DNA of 64,000 bases from positions 5,664,001-5,728,000 of the forward strand of contig CM000151.3 in NCBI GenBank assembly GCA_000004695.1. The letters run 5' to 3'. The notes under the pieces are model-generated. The model searched no databases and was not told the DNA's origin. It was given only the letters and a program-made list of their open reading frames with translations. The DNA is from Dictyostelium discoideum (Eukaryota). Shown here one piece after another: positions 9,078-58,920 of this stretch. Position 1 is the first letter of the stretch, and each line of letters opens with the position of its first letter. The translations under genes were made by a program, and so were the position numbers.

Positions 9078-9212
9078 TCAATATTATTAAAACTATAAAT
9101 TAAATAATTAAATAATTAAATAATTTTACTCGTAAAAAAAAAATAAAAAAAAAATAAAAAAAAATAAAAATAAAAGTTACACAAATAAATTTTCAAAATT
9201 TATACAAATATA

Positions 9213-9256
9213 TTTGAATTTCAAAATTTATACAAATATAAATTTTGAAATTCAAA
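9213..9256. terminator. 15-bp perfect inverted repeat with a 14-nt loop, between the convergent 3' ends of the smg1 and RTRAF genes. Two overlapping 22-nt direct repeats lie here as well.
   Basis: The sequence is TTTGAATTTCAAAAT-ttatacaaatataa-ATTTTGAAATTCAAA. The direct repeat tttcaaaatttatacaaatata occurs at 9191..9212 and 9220..9241. It lies 140 to 180 nt past the smg1 stop and 90 nt past the RTRAF stop. Confidence 0.3.
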
Positions 9257-9340
9257 TGTGGGAAGAACTTCTCACTCTTTTTTTTTTTTTTTTTTTTTTT
9301 TTTATTATTTCATATTTATTTTTTTATTTTATTTTTTATA

Positions 9341-10413
<1,073 letters not shown>

Positions 10414-15062: not shown

Positions 15063-15099
15063 AATAAATAAAAGTAAACTTAAAAAATATACATACACA

Positions 15100-15152
<53 letters not shown>

Positions 15153-15308
15153 ATAATTTAATAAAATAATAAATAATCAATATTGTTTTATTTTATTTTC
15201 TGTTACACTTTTTTTTTTTTTTTAATTTTTTTTTTTTTAAAATTTTATTAGTTTTTTTTTTTTATTTTTTTTATTATTATTATTTATATGTTCATATTTT
15301 CTTTGATT

Positions 15309-38026: not shown

Positions 38027-39468
38027 TTACAGCATTAAAAGTGGATTGTTATTATGTTGGTGATGATATTGTGGAATTGTTTGATTTTGAATATGGTATT
38101 GCATTTGATCGTTACCTCTATAAAATCCTTGAGTTTCTTGAATAAATGATTGAGGATATGGTTGGATTGAAATTTGTTGTTGTTGAATTTGTTGAACTTG
38201 TTGTTGTGGCATTGAATTATTAATTATTGGAGTTGACATTGGAATTGGAGATGATAAAGGAGAAGAAGTTGGTGTTACCATTGTCGATTGTTGTTGTTGA
38301 TTTGTATTTGATGATGATGTCGTTATTGAATTATTATTATTATTATTATTATTATTAACATTTGTTGAATTTAATTGTGACCATCTTGATTTGCATTCTA
38401 AAGCAGTTCTTGGAATTTTGGTAGTTTTAGCTCTTGCTAAATGTTTAGAAACTTGTTGAAAAGAGATTTTTTCATTATTTTGGGTCATTAATTTAATTTT
38501 TTTAGTCAAGATATCATCTTCCAATTGATTCCATTCAGTTTGTCTTGACATTATGGCTTTAAAGTATTGATAACGACATTGAATATCTGTACGAGTTTTA
38601 ATTTCAATTGCAACATTTTTCCAACTTTGACCATGTTTATCAACCAATTGAAACAAGAGCTCCTCTTCAGCTTCGTCCCAAGAGCCTTTTTTAATCTCTG
38701 GCGAGAGAACACGTTTCCAATGTTGAGCGCATTGAGCACCAGTTTTACCACCACCCAATTTGGTAGCTATCTTTTTCCATTGTTTATCACCATTCTCTGT
38801 TACTAATTTAATTAGATTTTGACTCTCTTCCTTTGTCCATTTATTTGGTGGTGATCTTATACCCCTACTAATACTCTCTCTCTTTCTTTCTCTCTTTTTC
38901 TTTATAATCTCTTGAGAGTTTGATGTTAATAAAATATCTTTAGTAAATTCTAATTCTTGTTCAGAGATACCATTATCAATTAAATATTTAACCATTTTAA
39001 TATCGCCATCAATTTTAACTAATGAATGAATTAATGTATTATGAATTGAATTATCTAAATTAAATTCTAAACATAAATTTTTTATCTTTTTAAAAAATAA
39101 AAAATAAAAAATTAGAATTTTAATTTTAATTTTAATTTTAATTTTTATTATTATTTTTAAAAATAAACTTACTTTTAATAACATTTGTTTTACAGTAATT
39201 TCTTCTTTTGAACATTCAGAAAATATTTTTATAATTGGTATAGTGATACCAGGTGTTTTACAAATTAAATTGACAAATGGTGTAATAGATACTCTTATTG
39301 CTTCTTGGTCGTCCTCATATTCCTCGAAATAACTATCGGCGTCGTCGTCACAATCATTTGAGGATTCTTTATCTGAGCAATGTTTATCGGATGAGTAATC
39401 ATCTTCAATACAACTATTATTACTATAACTACTTATACTACCACTACTATTTATATTATTATTTATTA

Positions 39469-39556
<88 letters not shown>

Positions 39557-40007
39557 GTTTGGATAATTATTTTCTTCCATCATTGCAGAATATGATCTTT
39601 TTATATTATTATTATTATTATTATTAATATTATTATTACTATTACTATTATTATTATTATTATTATTATTGTTATTATTATTATTATTATTTGAGAAACC
39701 AGTTGAAGAAGATAATGGAGTTGGTGATAATTCACCACTAACACAAGTTGGTGGTGAATGTTGATCTATAGTTAATTGTGGTGAATGAATTTGATGTGGT
39801 GGTGAATTTGTGATTGTATGATAATTATTATAGTTTGGTGGTGATGGACATAATGGTAATCCAGAGTAATTAAATGTTTGTTGTGGGAATAATGCTTGTG
39901 GAATCATTGGGATTTGATTCGATGTTCCATAGCATCCGAAATTTTTATTTATTAATTGTGGTGAAAAAATTGGTTGTGGTGTAGGAGGAATATTTTGATG
40001 GTGGTGA

Positions 40008-40076
<69 letters not shown>

Positions 40077-40162
40077 ATTGATTGTTGTGGTTGTTGTGGT
40101 TGTGCATTGGTGCTAGCCCAATAATAAAATGGGATATTTGAATTTGGGAATATAGCAGTCAT
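38027..40162 (-). CDS. Myb-family transcription factor with three Myb/SANT repeats (R1R2R3). Exons (minus strand): 40162..39173 and 39085..38027.
   Basis: The Myb repeats are ...NKWTKEESQNLIKLVTENGDKQWKKIATKLGGGKTGAQCAQHWKRVLSPEIKKGSWDEAEEELLFQLVDKHGQSWKNVAIEIKTRTDIQCRYQYFKAIMSRQTEWNQLEDDILTKKIKLMTQNNEKISFQQVSKHL...ECKSRWSQL. The 87-nt intron (AAA|GTAAGT...aaaaAG|ATA) is in frame and stop-free, so the track ORF reads through it as ...KVSLFLKIIIKIKIKIKIKIL.... The N-terminal half is poly-Q/N/H-rich. Confidence 0.85.
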
Positions 40163-40244
40163 TTTATTATTATTATTATTATTATTTATTATTTATTATT
40201 TTATTAATTTTAAAATTTATTTATTTGGAAAATATTAAATTTAC

Positions 40245-40326
<82 letters not shown>

Positions 40327-41555
40327 TTTTAAAAAAATAAATTATTATTATTTATAATTTAAATTAGGAGATTTTGAAAAAATAAAAAAAAAATAAAAAA
40401 ATTATTAATTAATTTTATTTTATTTTTTATAATTATTTATAATTATTATTATTATTATTATTATTTATTTGAATTTTATTTATACAATGTATTGGTATTG
40501 GTTATGTACAAAAAAAAAAAGTGATTGATTTTTTTTTTTTTTAATTATTTTTTTTTTTTTTGATTTTTTTTTTTTTTTTTGATTGTTATTTTTTTTAATT
40601 AATTTTGTTAAATAAAAAGTGACCTAGTGTAAGTAAGTGATGAAAAAAAAAAAAAAAATTAAAAGAAAAAATTAAATTTTATTAATATGAGAAAAAAAAA
40701 ATTTATATAAATTTATATAAAAAAAAAAAAAAAACTCAAAAATAACCAATCAAAATTATGTTCATAAATCTCTGATGGATCTAAATTTTTTGCGGGCTTG
40801 CTTTGGTTACTAAATCAAAAAAAAAAATAAAAAATAAATGAAAAAATAAAAAAAAAAAAAAAAAAATATTCATAAAAAAAAAAAATTAAATTAAATTAAA
40901 AAAAATTTTGTGTCTACACAGAAAATAGAAAAAAAAACAATGGATAAAAAGGTCACATTAACATCTTTGGACAATTTTTTTTTTTTTTTTTTTTTTTTGA
41001 TTAATTTTTTTTTTTTTTTAAATGAAAAATTTAATGGGGAAAAATTGTAGTAAATTGATTTTTTGAAAATATTATTTTTTTTTTTTTTAAATTGTTTAAA
41101 TAGTGGTGTTGTAGATCATTGGAAATGTTTTGAAAACTGAAAAAAAAAAAATTTTATTTTTAACAATAATCTACTAAAAAAAAAAAATCACCTTTTATTA
41201 AACAATAAAATATGGTAATTTTATTTACAATCGAGATTTTAAGAATTTACAAATTTTTTTTTTAGGTTTTTTTTTATAATTTTTTTTTTAAATCATTTTT
41301 TTTTTTTTATTATTATTTTTTTTCTTTTTTTTTGAAATTTTATTTTTGGTGGAGATTAATATAAAAAAAAAAAAAAAAAATGAATGACTTCTATAGATTT
41401 ATTATTACCTCTATTTTTTTTTTAATATTATATATAAATATATATTTATTTGATATGAATGTATGTTTTTTTTTTTTTTTTATTTTTATTAAAAAATTTG
41501 GGGTTTCAAAAAATTTATATTGAAATTCTTTAAAATGAATTTACTGTTTTTGATT

Positions 41556-41588
<33 letters not shown>

Positions 41589-42354
41589 ACTGTTTTTTTT
41601 TTTATTATTTTATTATAATTTTTTTTTTTTATTTATTTATTTATTTATTTTTTTTATTTTTTTTTTTTTTTGTAATCTTTTTTATTTTTCAAATATATAA
41701 TGAATTTATGATAGCATATTATCTGATAACAGTAGTTGAATATAAAAATAAATATACTTTTGGTTTTTATATTTTTTTTTTATTTTATTTTTATTTTTAT
41801 TTTTTATTTTTTATTTTTTTTTTTTATTTTATTTTTATTTTTATTTTTGTTTTTTATATTTACCATATAAAGATTTAATATATGGCAGTGGGTGTGAGAT
41901 GTTTTTTTTTTTTTTTATTTTTGGGTGTTTTTTTTTTATTTCAAAAGTTATGTGAAACAACGAATACATATTGGCAATAATAGGAATAATGAATTTAATT
42001 ATTGGTATTTTTATGAGGGGCGATCAATTTGGAAAAAAAAAAAAAAAAAAAAAAATGCAATAACAACACTAACCCCACATTCCAAACATTTATTATATTA
42101 ATAAAATTAAAAAAAGGCAATATATCTGTTGCTATTGAATAGTAATTATTATTTATATTATGGTAAAAATAAAAAAGCGAGAATGTGACTCGCATGATAT
42201 TTTTTTCCTTTTTTTTTGATAAAAAAAAAAAAATAATAAAATAAAAACTTATATATCTCAATTATAAATAAAAAAAATCTATTTTTAGAATCATTTACTC
42301 CACATACACATACAAAAATATCTTTATTTATTGTGAATTTACATTCACATGAAA

Positions 42355-42360
<6 letters not shown>

Positions 42361-42403
<43 letters not shown>

Positions 42404-42416
42404 TTTTTTATTATTA

Positions 42417-42448
<32 letters not shown>

Positions 42449-42480
42449 TTTATTTTTATTATTATTATTACTATTATTTA
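42361..42480. repeat. (ATT)n microsatellite. Another lies at 40245..40323.
   Basis: It is an attattatt... run with a few interruptions. Confidence 0.9.
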
Positions 42481-42670
42481 CTATGTATTTATATTATATT
42501 ATTTTAATTTAATTTAATTGAGAATGGGAGAGAGTGAGGGGGAGTTTTTTTTTTTATGTGAGTTTTTTTTTTTTTTTTTTTTTTTGTGTGGTTTGTGAGT
42601 GGTTGGGTGTGCATTTTGGATGTGTTGAATTTATTTGTTGTATCGAATGATATAAATATATAATAACTTT

Positions 42671-42704
<34 letters not shown>

Positions 42705-42709
42705 AAAAC

Positions 42710-42746
<37 letters not shown>

Positions 42747-43178
42747 TTTTGAAATTTTTATGATAATTTGGATAATATTGTTTTGTATTGATTGTCGTCA
42801 GGTCAATTAAATTAAATGTGAAATTAAAAGAATAATAAATTATTTTTTCCTTACATAAATAAGTTATATTATCTTTAATTTTTTTTAAATATTTTTTTTT
42901 TTTATTTTTTTTTCTTTTCCTGATATTATATCTATTGCTGTTAACAATGATTAAAAAAAAAAAAATAGGAAAACCACTTAAGATATTGTTTTATTTTTTC
43001 TTTTTCCTATTTTTTTTATTATATTTTTTTTTATTATTATTTTTTTTTTTTATTATTTTTTTTTTTTTTATTATTTTTTTTCAGTTTAAAAAAAGAGGAT
43101 CAACTTTTTTGTGAAAATAATAATTTTTATCACAATTGAATGATTGAAAAAAGCTAAAAATAATACTTTATGAGAGAT

Positions 43179-43226
<48 letters not shown>

Positions 43227-44081
43227 TTTTGATATTGGAAAAAAAAAAAAAAAAAGTGATTTTGATTTTATACACAATAATTTACATAAAATAAAACTAA
43301 AATCAATAATAAAAATCAATAATTCAACACCTGTCGACAAATAATATTGAAAATCACAAAACATATAATTTTTTGTTATACCCCATTATAATTTGATGGG
43401 GTAATCTTAAAAAAAAAGAAAAAACTTTTTACTATGACTTTTTTTTTCTTTATGGAAATATGGGTATACAAAAATTCTTTTTTTAAACCTCACCTCTTAT
43501 GATCAGCATGGGGTTAAATTTTTTAAAAATTGAATGGTTGGTGATTCGATGAATCCTCCTAATTTGAAAAAAAAAAAAAATAAAAAAAATGAAAAAAAAA
43601 AAAAATAAAAAAAAAGCGGATGGGAAATATTCGAGATCTAGACCTCAAATATTCTTACCGTTTTTAAATTAAAATCACACCACAATAAAAAATTTTTAAA
43701 TTTTATTATAATAATTTAAAATATGAAAAAAAAAAAAAAAAAAAAAAAAATTTAAATTAAATTAAATTAAATTAAAACTTACTGTTTTTGAAAAATGTTT
43801 AAGAAATTTGTTTTTAGGGGTGGGAAATTTATTGAAAAAAAAAAAAAAAAGAAAAAAAAAATTGATTGTTATAGTAATATACAAAATTGGAAATTAATGT
43901 CGAATCTGTGATGATTATAAAATGTGCAAATAGGATTTGAATTGAATCAAATCCTTTATATTAATATTTTTAAAAAATTTTAAAAATTATATGTGAATAA
44001 AAAAAAAAAAAATAATATATGAATAAAAAAAAAAAAAATAAAAAAAAAAAAAAAGTGAGAAAAATAAATAAATCGATCTGG

Positions 44082-44124
<43 letters not shown>

Positions 44125-44886
44125 TATTTATTTATTAATTGATTGTGTGTGTGTGTGTGTGTGTGCTATAATTTCGAATTATGTGAGTGTGTGGGATTTG
44201 GAAAAAATATAAAAAAAATAAAAAAAAACCTTTACTATTAAAGAAAAAGTCCTTAATTATTTATTTTATTTTTTTTTTTTTTTTTTTTTAAAAAAAATAG
44301 TTATTTGTTTGAAAACTAATTAGTTATTAAAAATAACAATATAATAAAAAAATCCTTTTTTTTTTTTTCTTTTTCATTTTTTTTTTTTTTTTTTTTAATT
44401 TTTTTTTAAATTTAAATTTTTATTTAATTTTAAAATAATTTTTTAATAATAGGTGGATATTTTAGACTAAATCTTGTGTTTTTTTTAATATGAGCACGTG
44501 AGTATCGGGCTTAATGCATTGTTATGTCGGATGATTTAGAGAACAGAATGATTTTAAAAAATTATTTTTTTAATTAAAATGGAATTTATCAATGCCTTTT
44601 GGGTAGCTAGTATTGGGAAGTGGGCTACTTGACTAACCGCAATAATTTTATTTTTATTTTTATTTTTTTTTTTATATTGCTGATTGGAAAAAAAAAAAAG
44701 TGAAGTTATTTTTTTTTTCTATTTAATATTGATTTTTTTTTTTTTTTTTTTTTTTTAAAAAAGCTTGATTGCAAGAATCTATTAAATGAATCCTAAAATG
44801 GATTACTATTAAAAGAAGCACTCCAAGCCCAATATTGGAAAAAACTTCCACAGACTGAAAAAATCTCATTTATCCTCTTCCATAAT

Positions 44887-44929
<43 letters not shown>

Positions 44930-45024
44930 GTGTTGATAAAGTTTTTGTTTTTTTTTTATTATTATTATTATATTAATATTATTATCATTATTATTATTAT
45001 TATTCTTAAGATAAATTTATATTG

Positions 45025-45058
<34 letters not shown>

Positions 45059-45700
45059 ATTAAATACTAAATAAAAAAAAGTAAATAAAAACCTTCGATT
45101 ATAAATCTTTAAATTTTTTTTTTGTTAATTTTCTAACTTGGTGATTTGAGAGAGTTTTTATAAAAAATTTCTATATAAATAAATTTTTAAAAAAAATAAA
45201 AATTAAAATAAAAAAAATAATAACATTGTGGTTTAAAACATCTAAATTATTTTATTTCTTTACTTTAAATATCATTTTTTTTTTTCCACATTCTAAATCC
45301 TACTTTCTAAAATATTTTTCCCGTTCCTAAATAAAAAAAAAAAAAAAATTATTCAAATATTGGTATTTTTGTATGTGTTTTTGGTTTTTTCTGAAAATAA
45401 TAGTTAAATAAAATCTTTTTTTTTATTTTTTTATTTTTTATTTTTTTTTTTTTTTAATTATTAAAAAAAAAAAAAAAGCCCGATAATTTTTTTTCAAATA
45501 ATCTAAAAACAAGTGCGGGTTCACTCTTTAAAAAATGGAATCAGTTTTTAAATATTTAATTATTATTTTATTTTATTTTATTTTATTTTATTTTTTATTT
45601 TTTATTTTTTATTTTTTTTTTATTTTTTTTTCATTAGAACAGAGAAAAGGAAATGTGAATACTGGTACATATGATTTTTTTTTTTTTTTTTTCCAACAAA

Positions 45701-46089
45701 CTATTTAGTTTTTGAGTTGGAAAATTGGACTTGAGATTCTAATAATTGAGATGAAGAATATTGACCAATTTCAATACCCTTTGGTTTTAATTCAACACTT
45801 AAATCTTGTAACCAACTTTCCTTATCTTTTTTGGAAGGTAATGAAATAGTATAAATTAAAACATCAATTGATTCAAGAGAACCAACAATAATACGTATCA
45901 TTGAATCTGTTAATAATAAAAAAATTAAAAAAAAAATAATTGTTAATAATTAAAATAAAAAAAAAAAAAAAAAATAGAAAAGTTAGCATAAACTTCATCG
46001 TTATTATTTTATGAAAATAAATTTCCAAAAAATTAAGAAATCTTTGGGTGTTTTTTTTTTGATAAAAATAACTTTTTTTTTTTTCTTTT

Positions 46090-46121
<32 letters not shown>

Positions 46122-46300
46122 TTTTGCAAAAATTACATCGGTGATTATTTACAAACTACCCATAAATATTTAAAGTCGGCAAACGTGCAACGATAATGTA
46201 ATACACGAAAAAAACCCCATTATTATCAATATATTATTATTATTATTATTATTATTTTTGTTGTTGTTTGTTGTTTCTATTATTATCATTAAAATATTTT

Positions 46301-46341
<41 letters not shown>

Positions 46342-47933
46342 TTTCCAGTAAAAAAAAAAAATAAAAAAAAAAAAAATAAAAAATTATCCAATCAAATTTT
46401 AACAGTAAAAAAAAAAAAAAAAGAAAAATAATAATAACCAATCACTTACCATTTGAACTAATATCTTTAATGTCTGCATTTTTCAAAGGAATTGTGTAAA
46501 CGTATTTATAATTTGAAAAAAGGCTAGATTTCTTTGTGACTAACACCATATCATTGAAAAAGAATAAATAAAAACCACCACTTTCACTTTTCTTATTTGC
46601 AGAGATATTACATTGTGACTCTCTAACAAAATATCTATGAGATTCAATTAATTCCTAAAAATAGTAACAAAAAAAAATAAAAAAAAATAAAAAAACAGGA
46701 GTTTTTTTTTTATTATTAATAAAGTATTAGTAAAATAAAAAAAATTATTATTTTAAAAAAAAAAAGAAAAAAAGGTGATATTATTATATTATTAAATTAA
46801 TTAAAAATTAATTAATTAAAATTTTTTTTTTGGTAATTTTTTTTTTTTTTTTTTTTTTATAAAAAAAAATAAAAATATCTAAATTTTCAAATAAAATGAA
46901 AATGGTCAAAAATAAAAAAAAAATAAAAAAAAACAAAAATATCTTTTTTTTAAAAAAAAAAAAAGTTTAAAGTAATATTACTTACTGGTGCATTTTTAAT
47001 TTCTTTTTGTAACTCTAATAATTTTGCTCTATTATCAACATTTCTCTTTCTATCATTAATATACTTATTAATATCTTTGATTGATTCATAAGCACTTTTA
47101 ATATTTTTAAATTCAACATGATCCTCTTGAGTGTGTTTTAAAATTTCCCTTAATAATAATTCATATCTTGGACAACGTTGAACTGGCATAATTAATAAAC
47201 TATTAATATCAGTTGCTACTCTTGATTTATTTCTTTGTTCTGAAAAGAATTTCTTTGATTGTGGATTCTCTGTCATTGCTTTTAATTGTGGTGCTACTTT
47301 ATCAAAATTATTTACATATTCCACATAAATTTTAAAAATTGGTGCCTTTTTTTTTTTTTTTTCAAAATAAATTAATAAAATAAAATAAAAAAAAAAAAAA
47401 AGAAATATTACTTACAAATTTAACAAAAATATCACCAATTTTAACAGGTGAAACTGATAATCTTTCTTCTAAAAGATGAGTAATCTCTGTACTAATTTGA
47501 AGGATACTTTTTAAATTTGAAAATACCTTATTAATTTCTTCACTTTTAAATAATTTTGTAACCCTCGCTTCAACTTCCATTGGAATAAAGTAAAACTTAA
47601 AAAAAAAAAAAAAATATAATATTAATAATTTTTAATTATAAAATTTAATAAATTAAAAATTTAAATTCCACTTACATCTCTTAAAATTAATAATGAATTT
47701 AAATATGATAATTCAGTAGAATATAACTCATTAACAGATTTAAATCTATTTCTCATATTTTCAGTTTCCGGATCATTTGATAAAAGTTTCATTTTAACTA
47801 AATCCTTAAACTTCTTTCTTGCTAACCATTTTCTACTTACTCTTTGAACACGAATAATATCACCAAATCTATAATTACCATCAACAATTTGATCCAATTC
47901 TTTTTGTGTATAAGTTTTAACAATTTTAACAGG

Positions 47934-47988
<55 letters not shown>

Positions 47989-50246
47989 GGTGGTTGTTCT
48001 TGTTGTGGTTGTGGTTGTTGAATAGTTGGTGATAATTTTGGTAAATGAGAAGAATTTCTTGATGGAATAACTGGTTTTTGTTGTGGTAAATTATCATTAA
48101 TATTTTGATCATCTTTATTTTTTAAAGCAATATTTGAAGCAGGTGAATTTTTATTATTAATATTTAAAGTTGATAACATATTACGCATTGGTTGTAATGA
48201 ATCGATTGTGGCTTGTTTAGATTGATTAATTTGTACTAATAGTTCACGTTGTTGACAATCGACCATTTCTTTTTGACGATTAATGTGATCTTGTTGTTCT
48301 TTTAATTTCTTTTCTTCTTGTTGACGAGCTTGTTCAATTTCAAGTTTCTTTCTTTTAGTTTCTTCATCAATTGATTGTTTATAGATTTGAATCTCTTTTT
48401 TCTCTCTCAAAGTTGTTTCTTCCAAAGCTTTACGCTGGTTCTCTAAATCCTCTTTACTCTTTAACGAAGTGGTTAAATCAGATTGTAATTTCGATTTCAA
48501 TGCATCCAATTCCTTATTTCTCTCAAGTAGCTCGAATTCACGTTTTTTCATCTCCTCGCATTTCTTTTCCTCCTCTACCTTTCTGCTACACTCATCTTGA
48601 TGAAGTTTGGATTGGAATGCTTGTTGCTGTGAGATGAGTTGCTGCTGCTTCTCGTCCAACTTCTCTTTGATCACACGTTGTTCCTCCAAGAGAGCCAAAC
48701 GTACTTGTTCTTCATGTTTTCTGCTTAGGTCTCTCTCTTTTTGAACCTCTATCAACTGTCTCTTCATCTCTTCTTGTTGCCATTGCAAAGCTGCTTGTTT
48801 AGCTTGTTCCATTTGTTTTAGATCTTCTTCACCCTTCTTTTTCGATGCATTCTGTTGTTGTACCAATTGATCTTTCATCTTTTGAATTTCGTCTCTTTGT
48901 TTCTCCAATTCATTCTTTAATCTATTTGATTCCTCTTCATGTTTAATTCTAATCTTTTCCATCTCTTCATTTCTAATTCTTTCTTGTTCTTTCTCATAAG
49001 CTGCTTGTTGTTCATAATAAACTCTCCATGATTCTTCATATTCTTTTCTTCTCTTTTCTTCTTCTTCTTGATATTTTTTATCATAAAGTACTTGATATTC
49101 TTGTTGTTGAGTTTGATTTGAATATGTATCAGTATTATTATTATATGATGAGTTATTATAAGTTGATTGATCATATCCCCATGAATTTCTATTATTATAA
49201 TTTGTATTTGTGGCTGATGATGGATTATTATAAGTTGTGTTTGTATTTGTTGGTGATGATGTTGTTGTTGTTGTTGATGGATTATTGTAAGTTGTATTTG
49301 TGGTTGATGATGATGGATTATTATATACTGATTGTGGTTGTTGTGGTTGTGGTTGTTGTTGATTATAATCCCAAGAATTAATAGTTGCAGATGGAGTATT
49401 TGATGGTGTACCTTTAATGAAATGATCCATATTTTTAAGTGATTGACTTTTTTCAAATTTAGATTGATTATCTGTTGTTGTTGTTGTTGTTGTTGAGGAT
49501 GATGATGATGTTGATGTTGGTGTAGTTGGTTGTTGATAATAAGAGTCATAGTTTGTGGCTGTATTATTTGTAACTTGTGAATAATCATATGATGAAGTTG
49601 GTGAATGTTGTTGTTGAGTTTGTGAATAATCATATGAATTTCTTTGAGCTGGTGGTTGATAATATGAATCATAGTTTGTAGATGTATTTGTGGTATTATT
49701 AGTTGCTGCTACTGTTGGTGTTGGTTGTTGTTGTTGTTGTTGTGAATAATATGAATTTGTTGAATAATCATATGATGATGGTGTTGGTGAATGTGTTTTA
49801 GAATTATCATAACCATAAGTATTAGCACTGGTTGTATTAGTTGTAGTATATTGATCATATTGACCACTATTTCTATTACCACTAGTATTACTATAATCAT
49901 AATTTTGGGTTGTGTTAGGTGTAGTTGTATTAGTTGTATTATATTGATCATATTGACCACTATTTCTATTACCACCAGTATTATAATCATATATTGAAGG
50001 TTGTTGTTGTTGTTGTTGTGTAGTAGAAGTAGTAGCATAAGTTGGATCTACATATGAACTTCCATAGTGTTGTTGTTGACTATCATTTGATTGTGCAGTA
50101 TGGTCATATACTGGATATTGTGGTTGTGGGTGTTGTTGTTGTTGATTATCATAGTATGATGCATAATCAAATGTCGGCTGTTGTTGTTGTTGTTGCTGCT
50201 GCTGCTGTTGTTGCTGCTGTTGTTGGTAATAATATTCATAGGACAT
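45701..50246 (-). CDS. Dbl-homology (DH) plus PH domain Rho/Rac guanine-nucleotide exchange factor. It has a long low-complexity N-terminus, a coiled-coil and an IQ-like motif. Five exons (minus strand): 50246..47676, 47595..47416, 47345..46985, 46654..46450, 45907..45701.
   Basis: The DH domain spans exons 1 to 3: ...RFKSVNELYSTELSYLNSLLILRD|FYFIPMEVEARVTKLFKSEEINKVFSNLKSILQISTEITHLLEERL...IGDIFVKF|APIFKIYVEYVNNFDKVAPQLKAMTENPQSKKFFSEQ...LLIMPVQRCPRYELLLREILKHT.... The PH domain is in exons 4 and 5: ELIESHRYFVRESQCNISANKKSESGGFYLFFFNDMVLVTKK.... An IQ-like IIRVQRVSRKWLARKKF precedes the DH domain. The donors are all GTAAGT, the acceptors are tttAAG, aaaAG, tttAG and aacAG, and the phases are consistent. 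Confidence 0.85.
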
Positions 50247-56871: not shown

Positions 56872-58670
56872 ATGTTTTAATAAAAAAAAAAATAATAATG
56901 ATAATAATTATAAAAAAAATTCTTTATAATGTTCTGAAAAATTAATTACAAAGATATTAAAAAAATGAAAATAAAAAATAAAAATAAAAAAATAAAAATA
57001 AAAAAAATAAAAAAAATAAAAAATTAAAAAATAAATTAAAATTTTATTTTATCGAAGTAGTTATGTTTCCATTTAAATTAAAAGATTTTCAAAGATTTTA
57101 AAAATATTAAAAAAAATATATATATATGTGTGTGTGACTGCTGCCATGGAGGTAGATGTGTTGTTTTGTTTGCCCCCAAAAGTTTCTATGAGACATATTG
57201 TGTATTTAAACTTCACCTATTTTCACTGGAATATACTTTTATGGTTAAAAGTAATATAATAATAATAATAATAATAATACACCTACCACAATTTCTCAAA
57301 AATAAAAATAAAAATAATAATAAAAAATAAAATATTAATACACTATGGCGATATGGTATCTATTTTTTTTTTTTTATTTATTATTTTAAAAATCAGTTTA
57401 ATATTATTTTTATTTTAAAGATTTTTTTTTTTATTTTATTTGGTCTTATTAGTAAAATGACAAATAATTTGTATTATAATAATTAATTTTTTTTTTTTTT
57501 TTATTAGAAATATTAAAAAAAAAAAAAATCTTTTTTTTTTGTGGGTAATTAATTTTTAATTAATTAAAAACATATTTTTCTCTTTTTCATTAGATAAATA
57601 AATGGGAGATTGTATTAAAAAAAACAATAATAAAAGGAAATGAAATCAAGAAAGATCTCTGATTCTCCAATTATTTTCTATTTTATGATTAGTTATACTC
57701 ATCGACTTTTTTTTAAAAAAATTTAAAATTGCCAGAAAATTGATAGTCCCATAAAGATTTAGGAAATAAAAAAACAACATATTAAAATATCAGACTTTCC
57801 TTTAATGGTATTTATTTTAATAATTTTATTAATTAAAAGGGAACAAGATAAAAGTAAAAAAAATATATAGTATTTAAAATTATGCCAATATCTTTTACAA
57901 TCATATCATTCATTTATATATGTAATAATAATAAAAGTAAAAAACATAAGAATATAATTATTAAATACTAAATAATTTTTCTTTTAAATATCAAAAAAAT
58001 TAAAAAAATTATTTAAACACTATAATAAAAGAATATTTTATGTTAGAAATATTTTTTTTAAAAAAATAAAATTTATATTTTTAAAAAATAAACAATGGTG
58101 TATCAGAATATGAATTATGCTCAAAGGAAGGGGTACTAAACCCTCCCTCACTCTAGAAGTGTCAGAATAATTTATTTGTATCATCATTAATACCCAAAAC
58201 ACAAAAGGAAATTAAATTTTTAACTTACAATATTGTAAATAAAAAATGGAATTGGGTAAGCAAGACAAGACAAGAAAACTAAAATAAATAGAAAAAAAAA
58301 AAAACCTCTATTAAAATAAAAAATTAATGTTAGAATAATTTTTTTTTAATTTTTAAATAAAATTATTATTTGGATTGATTAATTGTTTCAGTATTAAAAA
58401 GCTCGTTGTTTTTTTGTTCCACAAGAGTTTTCAGAGATTGTTCACATATACAATCATCATTAAGAATTAACCAATCCTACTAATAATTTTTTTTTTTTTT
58501 AAAAAATGTTTTTACATACCAATTATTATTCAACGATTTCCATAAAATGTTTTGTAATGAAAATATGAAAAAAAAAAAAAAAAAGCCTTTTTGTTTTGAA
58601 AAAAAAAATCAAAAAAAAAAAAAAACGCTAAAAAAAAAAAAAACAATTTTTTACTGAAAATTTTTTTCAA

Positions 58671-58704
58671 ACGAATTTCGCATTGATTTAAATGCGAAAT
58701 TCGT
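58671..58704. other. 13-bp perfect hairpin with an 8-nt loop, flanked by A-runs, in intergenic DNA.
   Basis: The sequence is ACGAATTTCGCAT-tgatttaa-ATGCGAAATTCGT. It is GC-containing and stands out in this AT-rich context. Confidence 0.4.
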
Positions 58705-58920
58705 ATTTAAAACGTTATGCTAAAAAAAAAAAAAAAATAATATGCATATATATATAACGTTATAGTTTTTATTATTAATTTTAAAATATTAAAAAAATAA
58801 AAAAATATAAGAGACATTTAATAAAATATACATTTACAAAAGACTGTTTTTTTTTATTTTTTATTTATTTATTTTTTTTATTTATTATTATTATTATTTT
58901 ATAATTATTATTATTATTAT

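Follow-up and report, generated by a model that had tools for sequence, protein, structure and literature searches.

What function, if any, resides in 5.5 kb of Dictyostelium discoideum chromosome 2 that lack a credible gene? The window analysed here (64,000 nucleotides, AX4 chr2:5,664,001-5,728,000) contains such a stretch, which will be referred to as the desert, and in which a first-pass annotation proposed four GC-richer islands as unannotated non-coding RNA genes. The desert spans the entire intergenic DNA between the ATG of mybB (DDB_G0275445, minus strand) and the stop codon of DDB_G0275679, on the 5′ side of the former gene and the 3′ side of the latter (Table 1). The developmental switch gene mybB encodes a Myb transcription factor which together with Sir2D governs the expression of adenylyl cyclase A as development begins (PMC6475656). 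An in-frame intron of 87 nt (39086-39172) is predicted for mybB from the gene model of a relative.

Coding capacity and composition of the desert

The desert comprises 5,538 nt with a GC content of 14.4% compared to 20.1% for the window. The absence of a credible reading frame over 5.5 kb was borne out, as all ORFs of at least 40 amino acids were low-complexity read-throughs rich in F, K, I, Y and L, the longest with 92 and 88 amino acids. The longest part of the window that lacks an open frame of normal composition with at least 100 codons extends from 40193 to 46952 (6.8 kb), followed by a runner-up of 3.2 kb. That most of the desert is homopolymer or microsatellite was, however, an overstatement; a strict definition (homopolymers of at least 6 or tandem repeats of at least 12 nt) yielded 39% for the desert versus 21% for the window. 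All strings quoted in the first-pass annotation were found at their coordinates, and the islands are clearly GC-richer, with 26.7% (island 1), 25.3% (island 2), 30.4% (island 3) and 31.4% (island 4) against a background of ~14%.

Table 1: Features of the desert and its flanks (positions in the window; identities refer to D. firmibasis unless stated otherwise).
Feature	Position	Strand	Remarks
mybB (DDB_G0275445) coding region	38027-40162	-	primer match; coordinates of the gene from suppl. file 19 of PMC5295588 (window offset 5,664,000)
Desert	40163-45700		chr2:5,704,163-5,709,700
Proximal block	40743-40816	.	89%; CCAAT box and GATC site
Block	40951-40973	.	96%; 100% over 18 nt in D. dimigraforme; ends shortly before the 5′ end of the lncRNA
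lncRNA CUFF_1509_1	41013-42578	+	single-exon; chr2:5705013-5706578; PMC5295588 suppl. files 15, 19
Block	41089-41138	.	92%; conserved GATC and ATTGG
Block	41690-41757	.	93-94%; three conserved GATA sites (TGATAG 41709, TTATCT 41719, TGATAA 41724)
Block	41948-42032	.	84%; conserved GATC at 42022
Block	42118-42156	.	85%
Block, weakly conserved	42279-42322	.	77%
Island 1	42500-42660	+	G/GT-rich, broken by T-runs; G-box-like heptamers at 42585, 42604
lncRNA CUFF_1510_1	42733-44036	+	single-exon; chr2:5706733-5708036; contains island 2; PMC5295588 suppl. files 15, 19
Block	42921-42952	.	88%
Block	43114-43162	.	85%; conserved GATA site
Island 2a	43362-43408	.	84%; 6-bp inverted repeat CCCCAT/ATGGGG
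Island 2b	43450-43566	.	85% over 120 columns; largest island 2 block
Island 2c	43616-43672	.	~64-70% conserved
Block	43862-43930	.	86%; C-box-like GTGATGA (perfect) at edge, 43908, not conserved
Island 3-left	44455-44603	.	86% over 111 columns; conserved CACGTG palindrome 44495; GATA site 44586
Island 3 right part	44604-44650	+	gtagc/gctac stem and U-rich tail; not conserved in D. firmibasis
Island 4	44757-44878	.	81% over 129 columns; core ~44815-44875 ~90%
CC(A/T)6GG palindrome CCAATATTGG	44829-44838		conserved; inside island 4
DDB_G0275679 (IQ/coiled-coil RhoGEF), last coding exon	45701-45901	-	89%; gene 45701-50246; PMC5295588 file 19

Conservation of the desert

D. firmibasis keeps the order of RhoGEF gene, a 5.0-kb gap and mybB. 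Comparison of the two deserts demonstrated 14 collinear blocks of 911 nt with 77-96% identity, including islands 2a, 2b, 3-left and 4. The pattern is one of short blocks containing indels of 1-2 nt and separated by length-variable repeats. Three of the four islands are thus conserved in this sister species, the one other species with which islands 1-4 were compared, and island 2, the left two-thirds of island 3 and island 4 proved to be more than chance features. Island 1 exceeds chance in composition only; conservation does not extend to its sequence, although D. firmibasis carries a (TG)n/GT-rich tract at the corresponding site. The right third of island 3 is present in AX4 but is not among the sequences conserved in D. 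firmibasis. Proximal blocks have further counterparts in D. citrinum, L008 and D. dimigraforme, and block 40743-40816 is identical to 100% in D. cf. discoideum, 96-97% in D. citrinum and L008 and 94% in D. dimigraforme. The D. purpureum Myb locus available for comparison, whose orthology and upstream completeness are uncertain, showed no conserved block.

In five other intergenic regions of the locus (3.4 kb), no block conserved in D. firmibasis was observed, while 8.6 were expected at desert density (Poisson P = 2 × 10−4). Divergence from D. cf. discoideum was counted at confidently aligned, non-low-complexity sites. Within 40163-42291, that is the proximal 2.1 kb to which this quantitative constraint test is limited since the D. 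cf. discoideum sequence ends there, the desert diverged by 3.7% (20/541), compared to 3.1% and 3.2% at codon positions 1 and 2, 8.5% at position 3 and 12.2% (84/688) in other non-coding DNA of the locus (Fisher p = 4 × 10−8 and 1.4 × 10−4 for the desert comparisons).

Candidate regulatory elements upstream of mybB

We consider it probable, though well short of certain, that the desert is an extended 5′ regulatory region of mybB, consisting of an array of conserved cis-regulatory elements that is partly transcribed. This reading is based on constraint, collinearity and the absence of coding or RNA-gene signatures, together with the published occupancy of the mybB promoter region by GtaC (PMC4506546) and published lncRNA models (PMC5295588); from these we infer the nature of the blocks as transcription factor-binding modules, the identity of the factors concerned and mybB as the gene under their control. 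The 14 non-coding blocks of 20-120 nt (~0.9 kb in total) are under purifying selection amid fast-evolving A/T homopolymers and microsatellites. Most likely they would act as DNA, in the form of binding-site clusters setting time and place of mybB transcription, and they would probably also drive divergent plus-strand lncRNA(s) over 41013-44036. Candidate sites are GATA/GATC for GtaC, the CArG-type CC(A/T)6GG palindrome, the CACGTG palindrome and CCAAT boxes, whereas island 1 and similar GT-rich tracts may represent composition-level, G-box-like elements. Motifs kept at aligned positions are the GATA triple (41709-41729), three GATC sites, CACGTG, CCAATATTGG and CCAAT boxes. The CArG, CACGTG, CCAAT and GATA assignments are pattern matches in AT-rich DNA to what we take to be the respective consensus sequences. 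The islands are mostly such blocks and most likely represent protein-binding regulatory DNA, and the motif types other than GATA/GATC suggest that additional factors may bind. The inverted repeats 2a and 2c as well as the lncRNAs leave room for a function at the RNA level.

In ChIP-seq of GtaC, mybB was among the putative direct targets, with scores for binding of 2.45, 12.3 and 8.3 (PMC4506546). The promoter region is defined in that study as all sequence from the 5′ side of the ORF to the neighbouring gene, so that the mybB promoter region is exactly this desert, and the ChIP-seq evidence is resolved to the whole region and not to single blocks or islands. The differential-expression scores of mybB were negative (−1.25 and −1.53; PMC4506546), hence GtaC may dampen rather than activate mybB.

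Published transcripts and possible exons

The catalogue of 2017 lists 621 lncRNAs, two of them located in the desert (PMC5295588). Non-coding RNA is thus made from part of the desert, as had been supposed, but these RNAs are already catalogued, and they are long, low-abundance transcripts instead of genes of the snRNA, snoRNA, Class I or SRP type. CUFF_1509_1 terminates within the poly-T run of island 1 and the gap between the two models is poly-T, which is why both may be one transcript. It is conceivable, but in our judgement rather unlikely, that the blocks are functional domains of the lncRNA(s), which would be under selection for their structure or for motifs that bind proteins and would regulate mybB or other genes. 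The plus-strand models take in 10 of the 14 blocks as well as island 2, whose two inverted repeats are conserved as consensus hairpins (z of −4.8 and of −10 to −13.7 against column shuffles). The arms of 2a are identical in D. firmibasis with a different loop length, and in both species 2c folds into a minus-strand helix of 11 bp, in which one change is compensatory. Nevertheless, four blocks, including 3-left and 4, lie beyond both models, block density is similar inside and outside, and the large blocks 2b, 3-left, 4 and 43862-43930 have no conserved structure (z +0.8 to −2.2, SCI 0.2-0.5). Moreover, the 2c helix is continuous on the minus strand only while the lncRNA is plus strand, and dimeric DNA-binding proteins would equally predict inverted repeats. 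The abundance of the lncRNAs showed no correlation with that of mybB (r about 0.03-0.06), by which a regulatory link between them is neither supported nor excluded.

Less probable still, we regard it as doubtful that the islands are unannotated exons of coding genes, be it a non-coding 5′ leader or an alternative promoter further upstream for mybB, a long 3′ UTR of DDB_G0275679, whose stop codon is 0.8-1.2 kb away from islands 3 and 4, or micropeptide ORFs. GTAAG-type 5′ splice-site strings are present on the minus strand at 42850, 43654 and 43778, of which the one at 43654 recurs in D. firmibasis as CGGTAA. This strand, the sense strand of mybB, also gives the best 2c helix. The dictyBase-style gene models in the papers are CDS-only. 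However, no frame is open across 2b, 3-left and 4 and their indels are mostly 1-2 nt, hence these blocks are non-coding; a 48-aa ORF on the minus strand of island 4 is broken by 1-nt indels. The splice-site-like strings are near expectation (3 versus 1.9), the catalogued transcripts are here on the plus strand only, and Dictyostelium UTRs are typically short.

Search for small structured RNA genes

The proposal to read the islands as small structured ncRNA genes (snRNA, snoRNA, Class I or SRP-like) in AT-rich spacer was largely refuted, and we now consider it highly improbable, even though the islands are GC-richer than the background, three are conserved, island 2 has two conserved hairpins and in AX4 a U-rich tract follows a 5-bp stem in island 3. 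The deserts of AX4 and D. firmibasis yielded neither an Rfam match, be it at gathering score or at E ≤ 10, nor a DUSE; one-mismatch DUSEs in the desert were not enriched, and those within reach of the D. firmibasis alignment were not conserved. The desert contained no Class I motif in a stem context, no box C/D candidate and no tRNA, the sole perfect C box being lost in D. firmibasis. Islands 1, 3 and 4 fold like shuffled sequence, the folding excess in the desert is limited to the two short inverted repeats of island 2, and structured windows are not enriched. The stem and Sm-site-like tail of island 3, pointed out in the first-pass annotation, are not conserved, and neither island 3 nor island 4 is covered by a lncRNA model. 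The Class I and miRNA supplementary tables examined contain no entry at the chromosomal coordinates of the desert. DUSE-driven ncRNA genes (snRNAs, SRP RNA, Class I RNAs) likewise appear as GC-richer conserved islands in AT-rich DNA (Hinas and Soderbom 2007; Kjellin et al. 2021, PMC7919456), but the desert islands, which are single-copy within the window, lack a DUSE ~60 nt upstream, a TGTG-box/DUSE pair, a covariance-model match, a terminal stem, the 11-nt motif and a conserved fold.

Least probable of all is that the islands are a functionless, non-repetitive residue of a large spacer and appear conserved due to close genomes or slow mutation: D. cf. discoideum is indeed close, as its third codon positions show, and alignable sequence is the non-repetitive part by construction, but other non-repetitive non-coding DNA diverges more strongly, other intergenic DNA of the locus cannot be aligned with D. 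firmibasis, block order, desert size and flanking genes are all kept, and a regional mutation-rate effect would not produce the sharp end of conservation inside island 3.

Comparison with known systems

As a probable extended regulatory region of mybB, the desert resembles the arrays of conserved non-coding elements of animals and plants (gene deserts, genomic regulatory blocks). There, too, a key developmental transcription factor gene lies beside an unusually long gene-free interval; the interval holds numerous short non-coding blocks in collinear order on which purifying selection acts, and its size and the flanking gene order are kept between species. It differs in scale, with 5 kb compared to 100 kb to Mb, and in that conservation is so far detectable only within group-4 dictyostelids. 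The desert lncRNAs belong to the intergenic lncRNAs of D. discoideum development (Rosengarten et al. 2017, PMC5295588); both consist of one exon, contain no substantial ORF and run opposite to the genes on either side. The catalogue, however, holds transcripts only, without a conserved block structure, and half of the islands are outside its models. High mybB binding scores and conserved GATA/GATC sites are shared with promoters targeted by the GATA factor GtaC in early development (Santhanam et al. 2015, PMC4506546), from which the desert is set apart by the negative mybB expression scores and the further motif types. The desert would thus be a feature of an ordinary kind, of which it represents a new and well-defined example.

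The intergenic region upstream of mybB

The gene desert at window positions 40163-45700 is located 5′ of mybB (DDB_G0275445), a minus-strand gene ending at 40162, and 3′ of DDB_G0275679, which encodes an IQ/coiled-coil RhoGEF and is likewise found on the minus strand. The mybB assignment comes from a perfect match of 40111-40131(-) to a primer published for the mybB knock-out. The flanking genes have been placed at chr2:5702027-5704162 (mybB) and chr2:5709701-5714246 (DDB_G0275679) (PMC5295588); since one offset, 5,664,000, fits both of them, the desert represents the entire intergenic region. Exact protein look-ups further identified Rab32C and uL23m (DDB_G0275673) as encoded in the window, which assigns it to chromosome 2 of D. 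discoideum AX4.

The first-pass annotation, a reading of the sequence alone, had described the desert as free of exon-like ORFs, composed mostly of homopolymers and microsatellites, and carrying four GC-richer islands (42500-42660, 43380-43660, 44470-44650, and 44760-44880) that were proposed to be unannotated small noncoding RNA genes. The lack of coding sequence was confirmed. The ORFs within these 5,538 nt (14.4% GC, in an extremely AT-rich window) are low-complexity read-throughs alone, and the desert is part of a 6.8-kb stretch without ORFs, the longest in the window (the runner-up measures 3.2 kb). The four islands were also recovered at these positions with a GC content of 25-31%, and the repeat content had been overstated, as homopolymers and microsatellites account for 39% of the desert by a strict definition. 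All islands are single-copy within the window, and a repeat or transposon origin was rejected on this basis.

The mybB gene itself is predicted, from the gene model of a sister species, to contain an 87-nt intron (39086-39172, minus strand). As this intron is in frame and without stops, the genomic ORF reads through, yielding 711 aa compared to 682 aa for the spliced version. By exact look-up, neither version was present in the protein collection, and the last RhoGEF exon was absent from the protein records.

Conservation of the desert in related species

Orthologous loci of several sister genomes were reached via exact look-ups of Rab32C and F-box orthologues; when the MybB and RhoGEF proteins served as homology queries, no close orthologues were among the results. 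The D. cf. discoideum locus is collinear with the window and ends at 42291, and substitutions were counted at confidently aligned sites outside low-complexity sequence. The part of the desert tested (40163-42291) diverged by 3.7% (20/541), significantly less than the other noncoding DNA of the locus (12.2%, 84/688; p = 4e-8) and third codon positions (8.5%; p = 1.4e-4); codon positions 1 and 2 diverged by 3.1% and 3.2%, respectively.

The D. firmibasis locus (L009) spans the whole interval from the end of the RhoGEF gene (698) to the start of mybB (5696). Gene order is retained, with a gene-free gap of 5.0 kb compared to 5.5 kb in AX4. A blastn comparison of the two deserts yielded 14 strictly collinear blocks comprising 911 nt with 77-96% identity, the flanking exons being 89% identical; blocks in the islands and one extra block are listed in the table. 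Elsewhere in the 25-kb locus, matches were confined to coding sequence and to the few dozen bases next to gene ends. At the block density of the desert, the five other intergenic regions (3.4 kb together) should contain 8.6 blocks; they contained none (P = 2e-4). Those blocks proximal to mybB are also kept in D. citrinum, D. dimigraforme, and a further genome (L008). The desert displays what is expected of conserved noncoding cis-regulatory elements, namely a sub-neutral substitution rate as well as collinearity and retained linkage to the putative target gene mybB.

Conserved blocks of the desert (identity to D. firmibasis) and published lncRNA models
Feature	Window position	Chromosome 2 position	Strand	Identity	Source
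First lncRNA	41013-42578	5705013-5706578	+		PMC5295588
Second lncRNA	42733-44036	5706733-5708036	+		PMC5295588
Island 2a block	43362-43408			84%	
Island 2b block	43450-43566			85%	
Extra block	43862-43930			86%	
Island 3, left part, block	44494-44601			86%	
Island 4 block	44757-44878			81%	

Compared with one other species, D. firmibasis, the islands can be taken as NEVERTHELESS real. The suggestion that they are meaningful holds for island 2, the left part of island 3, and island 4, and fails for the sequence of island 1 and the right third of island 3, where conservation stops at about 44603. Island 2c, the last part of island 2, shows about 64-70% identity in extended alignments, and the palindrome at 43932-43956 is not conserved in D. 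firmibasis. Judging from the alignment, it is the composition of island 1 that is conserved and not its sequence; the D. firmibasis counterpart is an unrelated (TG)n/GT-rich tract of ~60 nt (42157-42920 in AX4 versus 3182-3752 in L009).

Four further loci, from D. purpureum (L001), a D. dimigraforme paralogue (L002), and two environmental or unassigned contigs (L003, ENA ERZ25067825; L004, Logan SRR30000134), are not syntenic upstream and have no island in common with the desert. The D. purpureum Rab contig stops directly after the Rab gene. L003 and L004, the Myb domains of which are 79-83% identical to MybB, have other upstream neighbours and no desert block match, and are probably derived from more distant dictyostelids. 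Scanning metagenomes with the invariant core of island 3 gave no match. The island 4 18-mer CTCCAAGCCCAATATTGG was found exactly in 21 metagenome contigs (L012-L032); as these range from 31 to 70% GC and show no similarity beyond the seed, the matches are due to chance or unrelated.

Putative binding sites and proposed control of mybB

Several short strings within the blocks are conserved at aligned positions: GATA occurs three times within 21 nt (41709-41729) and again at 43127 and 44586, GATC is found at 40778, 41114, and 42022, and CCAAT boxes are also retained. Island 3 carries a conserved CACGTG (44495), island 4 a conserved perfect CC(A/T)6GG palindrome, CCAATATTGG (44829). We presume from their consensus that the GATA, GATC, CACGTG, CArG-like, and CCAAT strings correspond to known classes of binding sites. 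GT-rich heptamers show a roughly 3-fold, strand-biased enrichment that is partly due to a (GT)n microsatellite, and the sequence of island 1 is not conserved; a GBF/G-box role of island 1 is only a minor possibility. The plus strand of the desert has a strongly positive GC skew (+0.15 to +0.49 per kb), and heptamers of the G-box-like type [TG]G[TG]G[TG]G[TG] occur 14 times on the plus strand, where a (GT)n repeat at 44144-44164 supplies eight of them, and once on the minus strand.

GtaC, a GATA factor, has 561 putative direct targets, and these include mybB, with binding scores of 2.45, 12.3, and 8.3, which refer to the promoter region as a whole, and with negative expression scores (PMC4506546). 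In that study a gene was assigned all peaks from its ORF to the next upstream gene, and by this rule the mybB promoter region is exactly this desert (PMC4506546).

As the best-supported reading, we consider it rather likely that the desert is an extended regulatory region of mybB, consisting of an array of conserved elements, most likely transcription factor-binding modules, and partly transcribed as lncRNA. The short conserved elements would be the predicted binding modules, spaced by rapidly evolving repeats, and part of the desert would give rise to a divergent low-level lncRNA.

Long noncoding transcripts and RNA structure

In their survey based on strand-specific, rRNA-depleted developmental RNA-seq, Rosengarten et al. 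reported two intergenic lncRNAs, of one exon each, in the space between DDB_G0275445 and DDB_G0275679; by chromosomal order, these are the only catalogued lncRNAs inside the window (PMC5295588). A strand-specific transcript model located outside annotated genes and without a substantial ORF, which defines an lncRNA, exists in the desert for 41013-44036 only, and no ORF of normal composition is present in this interval. Since the 154-nt gap between the two models is poly-T, both may belong to one transcript. Their abundance is uncorrelated with that of mybB (r = 0.06 and 0.03) (PMC5295588). The second model encloses island 2, and the first terminates within island 1; neither covers islands 3 and 4. 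The proposal of unannotated noncoding RNA genes was therefore correct in that part of the desert is transcribed, and incorrect as to the RNA class and in that the lncRNAs had already been catalogued (PMC5295588). The identifiers differ between the files of that study (CUFF_1509_1 and CUFF_1510_1 in file 19, CUFF_3358_1 and CUFF_1654_1 in file 15) at the same coordinates; in file 15, the id column appears to be shuffled against the coordinates.

Function of the lncRNA at the RNA level, including two hairpins, is a possible though unlikely explanation. Structure beyond that of shuffled sequence was detected in two short inverted repeats only, 2a and 2c, both within island 2. In 2a, the arms of CCCCAT/ATGGGG are identical in AX4 and D. 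firmibasis and the loop varies in length. In 2c (about 43619-43646), the minus strands of both species form an uninterrupted 11-bp helix, with one compensatory change (U-A to A-U) and one one-sided change (G.U to A-U); on the plus strand, a conserved U.G of this helix turns into a C.A mismatch. With two sequences alone, both hairpins are indistinguishable from a palindromic site for a dimeric protein.

On both strands, the folds of islands 1, 3, and 4 were not more stable than those of dinucleotide-shuffled sequences (single-sequence folding, z -1.8 to +0.9). We also compared the consensus folding energy of AX4/D. firmibasis alignments with that of column-shuffled alignments, and blocks 2b, 3-left (the conserved left part of island 3), 4, and 43862-43930 gave z-scores from +0.8 to -2.2 and SCI values of 0.2-0.5, suggesting that the conserved blocks are mostly not structured RNA. 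Likewise, a 66-nt MFE scan of the whole window did not show an enrichment of stable windows in the desert, z < -2 being reached by 5.4% of windows versus 3.4% on the plus strand and by 3.0% versus 3.2% on the minus strand. The 66-nt windows most stable for their GC content (9193-9282, 9823-9918, 15067-15180, and 58639-58734; z down to -6.8, both strands) suggest long inverted repeats or hairpins, and all of them are outside the desert.

Coding potential and small RNA genes

Coding sequence should keep an open frame between species with frame-preserving indels. Blocks 2b, 3-left, and 4 have no frame open throughout on either strand, and their indels between AX4 and D. firmibasis are mostly 1-2 nt long; a 48-aa ORF at 44723-44869(-) is disrupted by 1-nt indels. 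A hidden exon or micropeptide in these blocks was rejected on account of the closed frames and short indels. That the blocks are unannotated UTR exons or an upstream leader of mybB appears improbable; the 2c helix is continuous on the strand of mybB, and both catalogued transcripts are on the opposite strand.

Small structured RNA genes, which the first-pass annotation expected to be recognizable by Rfam, an upstream DUSE (Dictyostelium upstream sequence element), and folding, are a very unlikely explanation of the islands. Folding was positive solely for the 2a and 2c repeats. No Rfam family, including snRNA, SRP, and snoRNA families, matched the AX4 desert or the orthologous D. firmibasis interval at gathering score. 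At E<=10, spurious matches alone were obtained, a Na+ riboswitch (E=2) in AX4 and XIST, mir-3613, and Phe-leader on an AT repeat in the D. firmibasis interval. A tRNA scan of the desert found no tRNA genes.

The DUSE, [AT]CCCA[CT]AA located about 60 nt upstream of an RNA start or TGTG box, is absent in its exact form from 40163-45700 and from the D. firmibasis desert. Sites with one mismatch are not enriched (182 in the desert versus 168 +/- 11 expected by chance). Four of them keep the CCCA core (41919, 43458, 44189, and 44597); those at 43458 and 44597, in blocks aligned with D. firmibasis, are lost in that species, and 44189 is outside every conserved block. The exact DUSE nearest to the desert, ACCCATAA at 46158-46165 (+), lies in the last RhoGEF intron (45902-46445; ~540 nt, unusually long for Dictyostelium). 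It was rejected as a noncoding RNA promoter, being ACACATTC in D. firmibasis and followed by nothing RNA-like. The surrounding intronic block of ~115 nt (46126-46240) is conserved in D. firmibasis and matches no Rfam family.

The individual RNA classes gave a comparable result. Class I RNAs of about 60 nt have a short terminal stem and an 11-nt motif similar to CCUUACAGCAA beside the 5′ stem. The sole match with up to two mismatches in the desert, CCTTACATAAA at 42849, is preceded by a T-run and has neither stem nor DUSE, and the supplements of the Class I paper that were searched contain no locus at chr2:5.704-5.709 Mb. Both strands of the desert were scanned for box C/D snoRNAs, defined by a terminal stem of at least 4 bp and a RUGAUGA C box followed 45-140 nt later by a CUGA D box, and no candidate had such a stem; the only perfect C box (GTGATGA, 43908) lacks a D box and reads GTGGTTA in D. 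firmibasis. An snRNA-like gene would have a stem-loop and, beside it, an Sm site (A U4-6 G), both conserved. The gtagc/gctac stem of island 3 and the downstream AAUUUUAU tract, which has no G (44603-44655), are without D. firmibasis counterpart, and the most specific structural cue for an RNA gene, this stem with its Sm-site-like, U-rich tail, was thereby lost. miRNA precursors, extended hairpins with stems of about 20 bp or more giving RNAs of about 21 nt, were not found in the desert, the conserved helices having just 6 bp (2a) and 11 bp (2c); the DrnB/miRNA supplement, as far as searched, has no entry at desert coordinates. Literal searches of papers and the snoRNA supplement did not find any of the island sequences.

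Elsewhere in the window, a single Rfam hit reached gathering score, a SNORD36-like box C/D snoRNA at 58382-58453 (-) (E = 0.02; 37.5 bits with a gathering score of 30). D′ and D boxes are present together with a terminal stem and a well-matched guide region, but the C box is poor; a DUSE about 60 nt upstream is missing, and a literal search of the supplement of the D. discoideum snoRNA paper did not find it.

Islands without any function are the least credible reading, given the conserved blocks.

Conclusions

Regulatory DNA, lncRNA, and GtaC binding are known kinds of features, the latter two already published for this locus. New here are a map of the conserved blocks at base resolution and the maintenance of desert size, order, and synteny across species beside a master developmental regulator. 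MybB sits atop the cascade leading from starvation to aggregation, and to our knowledge the control of mybB itself is poorly defined.

There is a slight chance of a more unusual outcome. Part of the desert might give rise to an unannotated RNA from the minus strand, such as an upstream mybB transcript or a long, regulated mybB leader, with the conserved hairpins serving as functional RNA elements, above all the minus-strand-continuous 2c helix with its compensatory change; or 3-left and island 4 might be genes of a new, DUSE-independent class of small RNAs. More broadly, this might be the first case documented in Amoebozoa of a "gene desert" with a conserved noncoding array, its size and synteny kept around a master developmental regulator.

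With regard to mybB regulation, base-pair coordinates are now available for 14 constrained noncoding blocks, including the triple GATA cluster and the CArG-type and CACGTG palindromes, and are directly usable for deletions and reporters. Now that genomes of sister species (D. firmibasis, D. cf. discoideum, D. citrinum, and D. dimigraforme) have become available, phylogenetic footprinting is feasible in dictyostelids; with D. purpureum as the only comparator, it was not. The locus should be of moderate interest to Dictyostelium developmental biologists. As a general rule for Dictyostelium, if a long AT desert beside a regulatory gene contains islands of higher GC content and no DUSE is present, these islands are more probably conserved regulatory DNA or lncRNA than genes for small noncoding RNAs.
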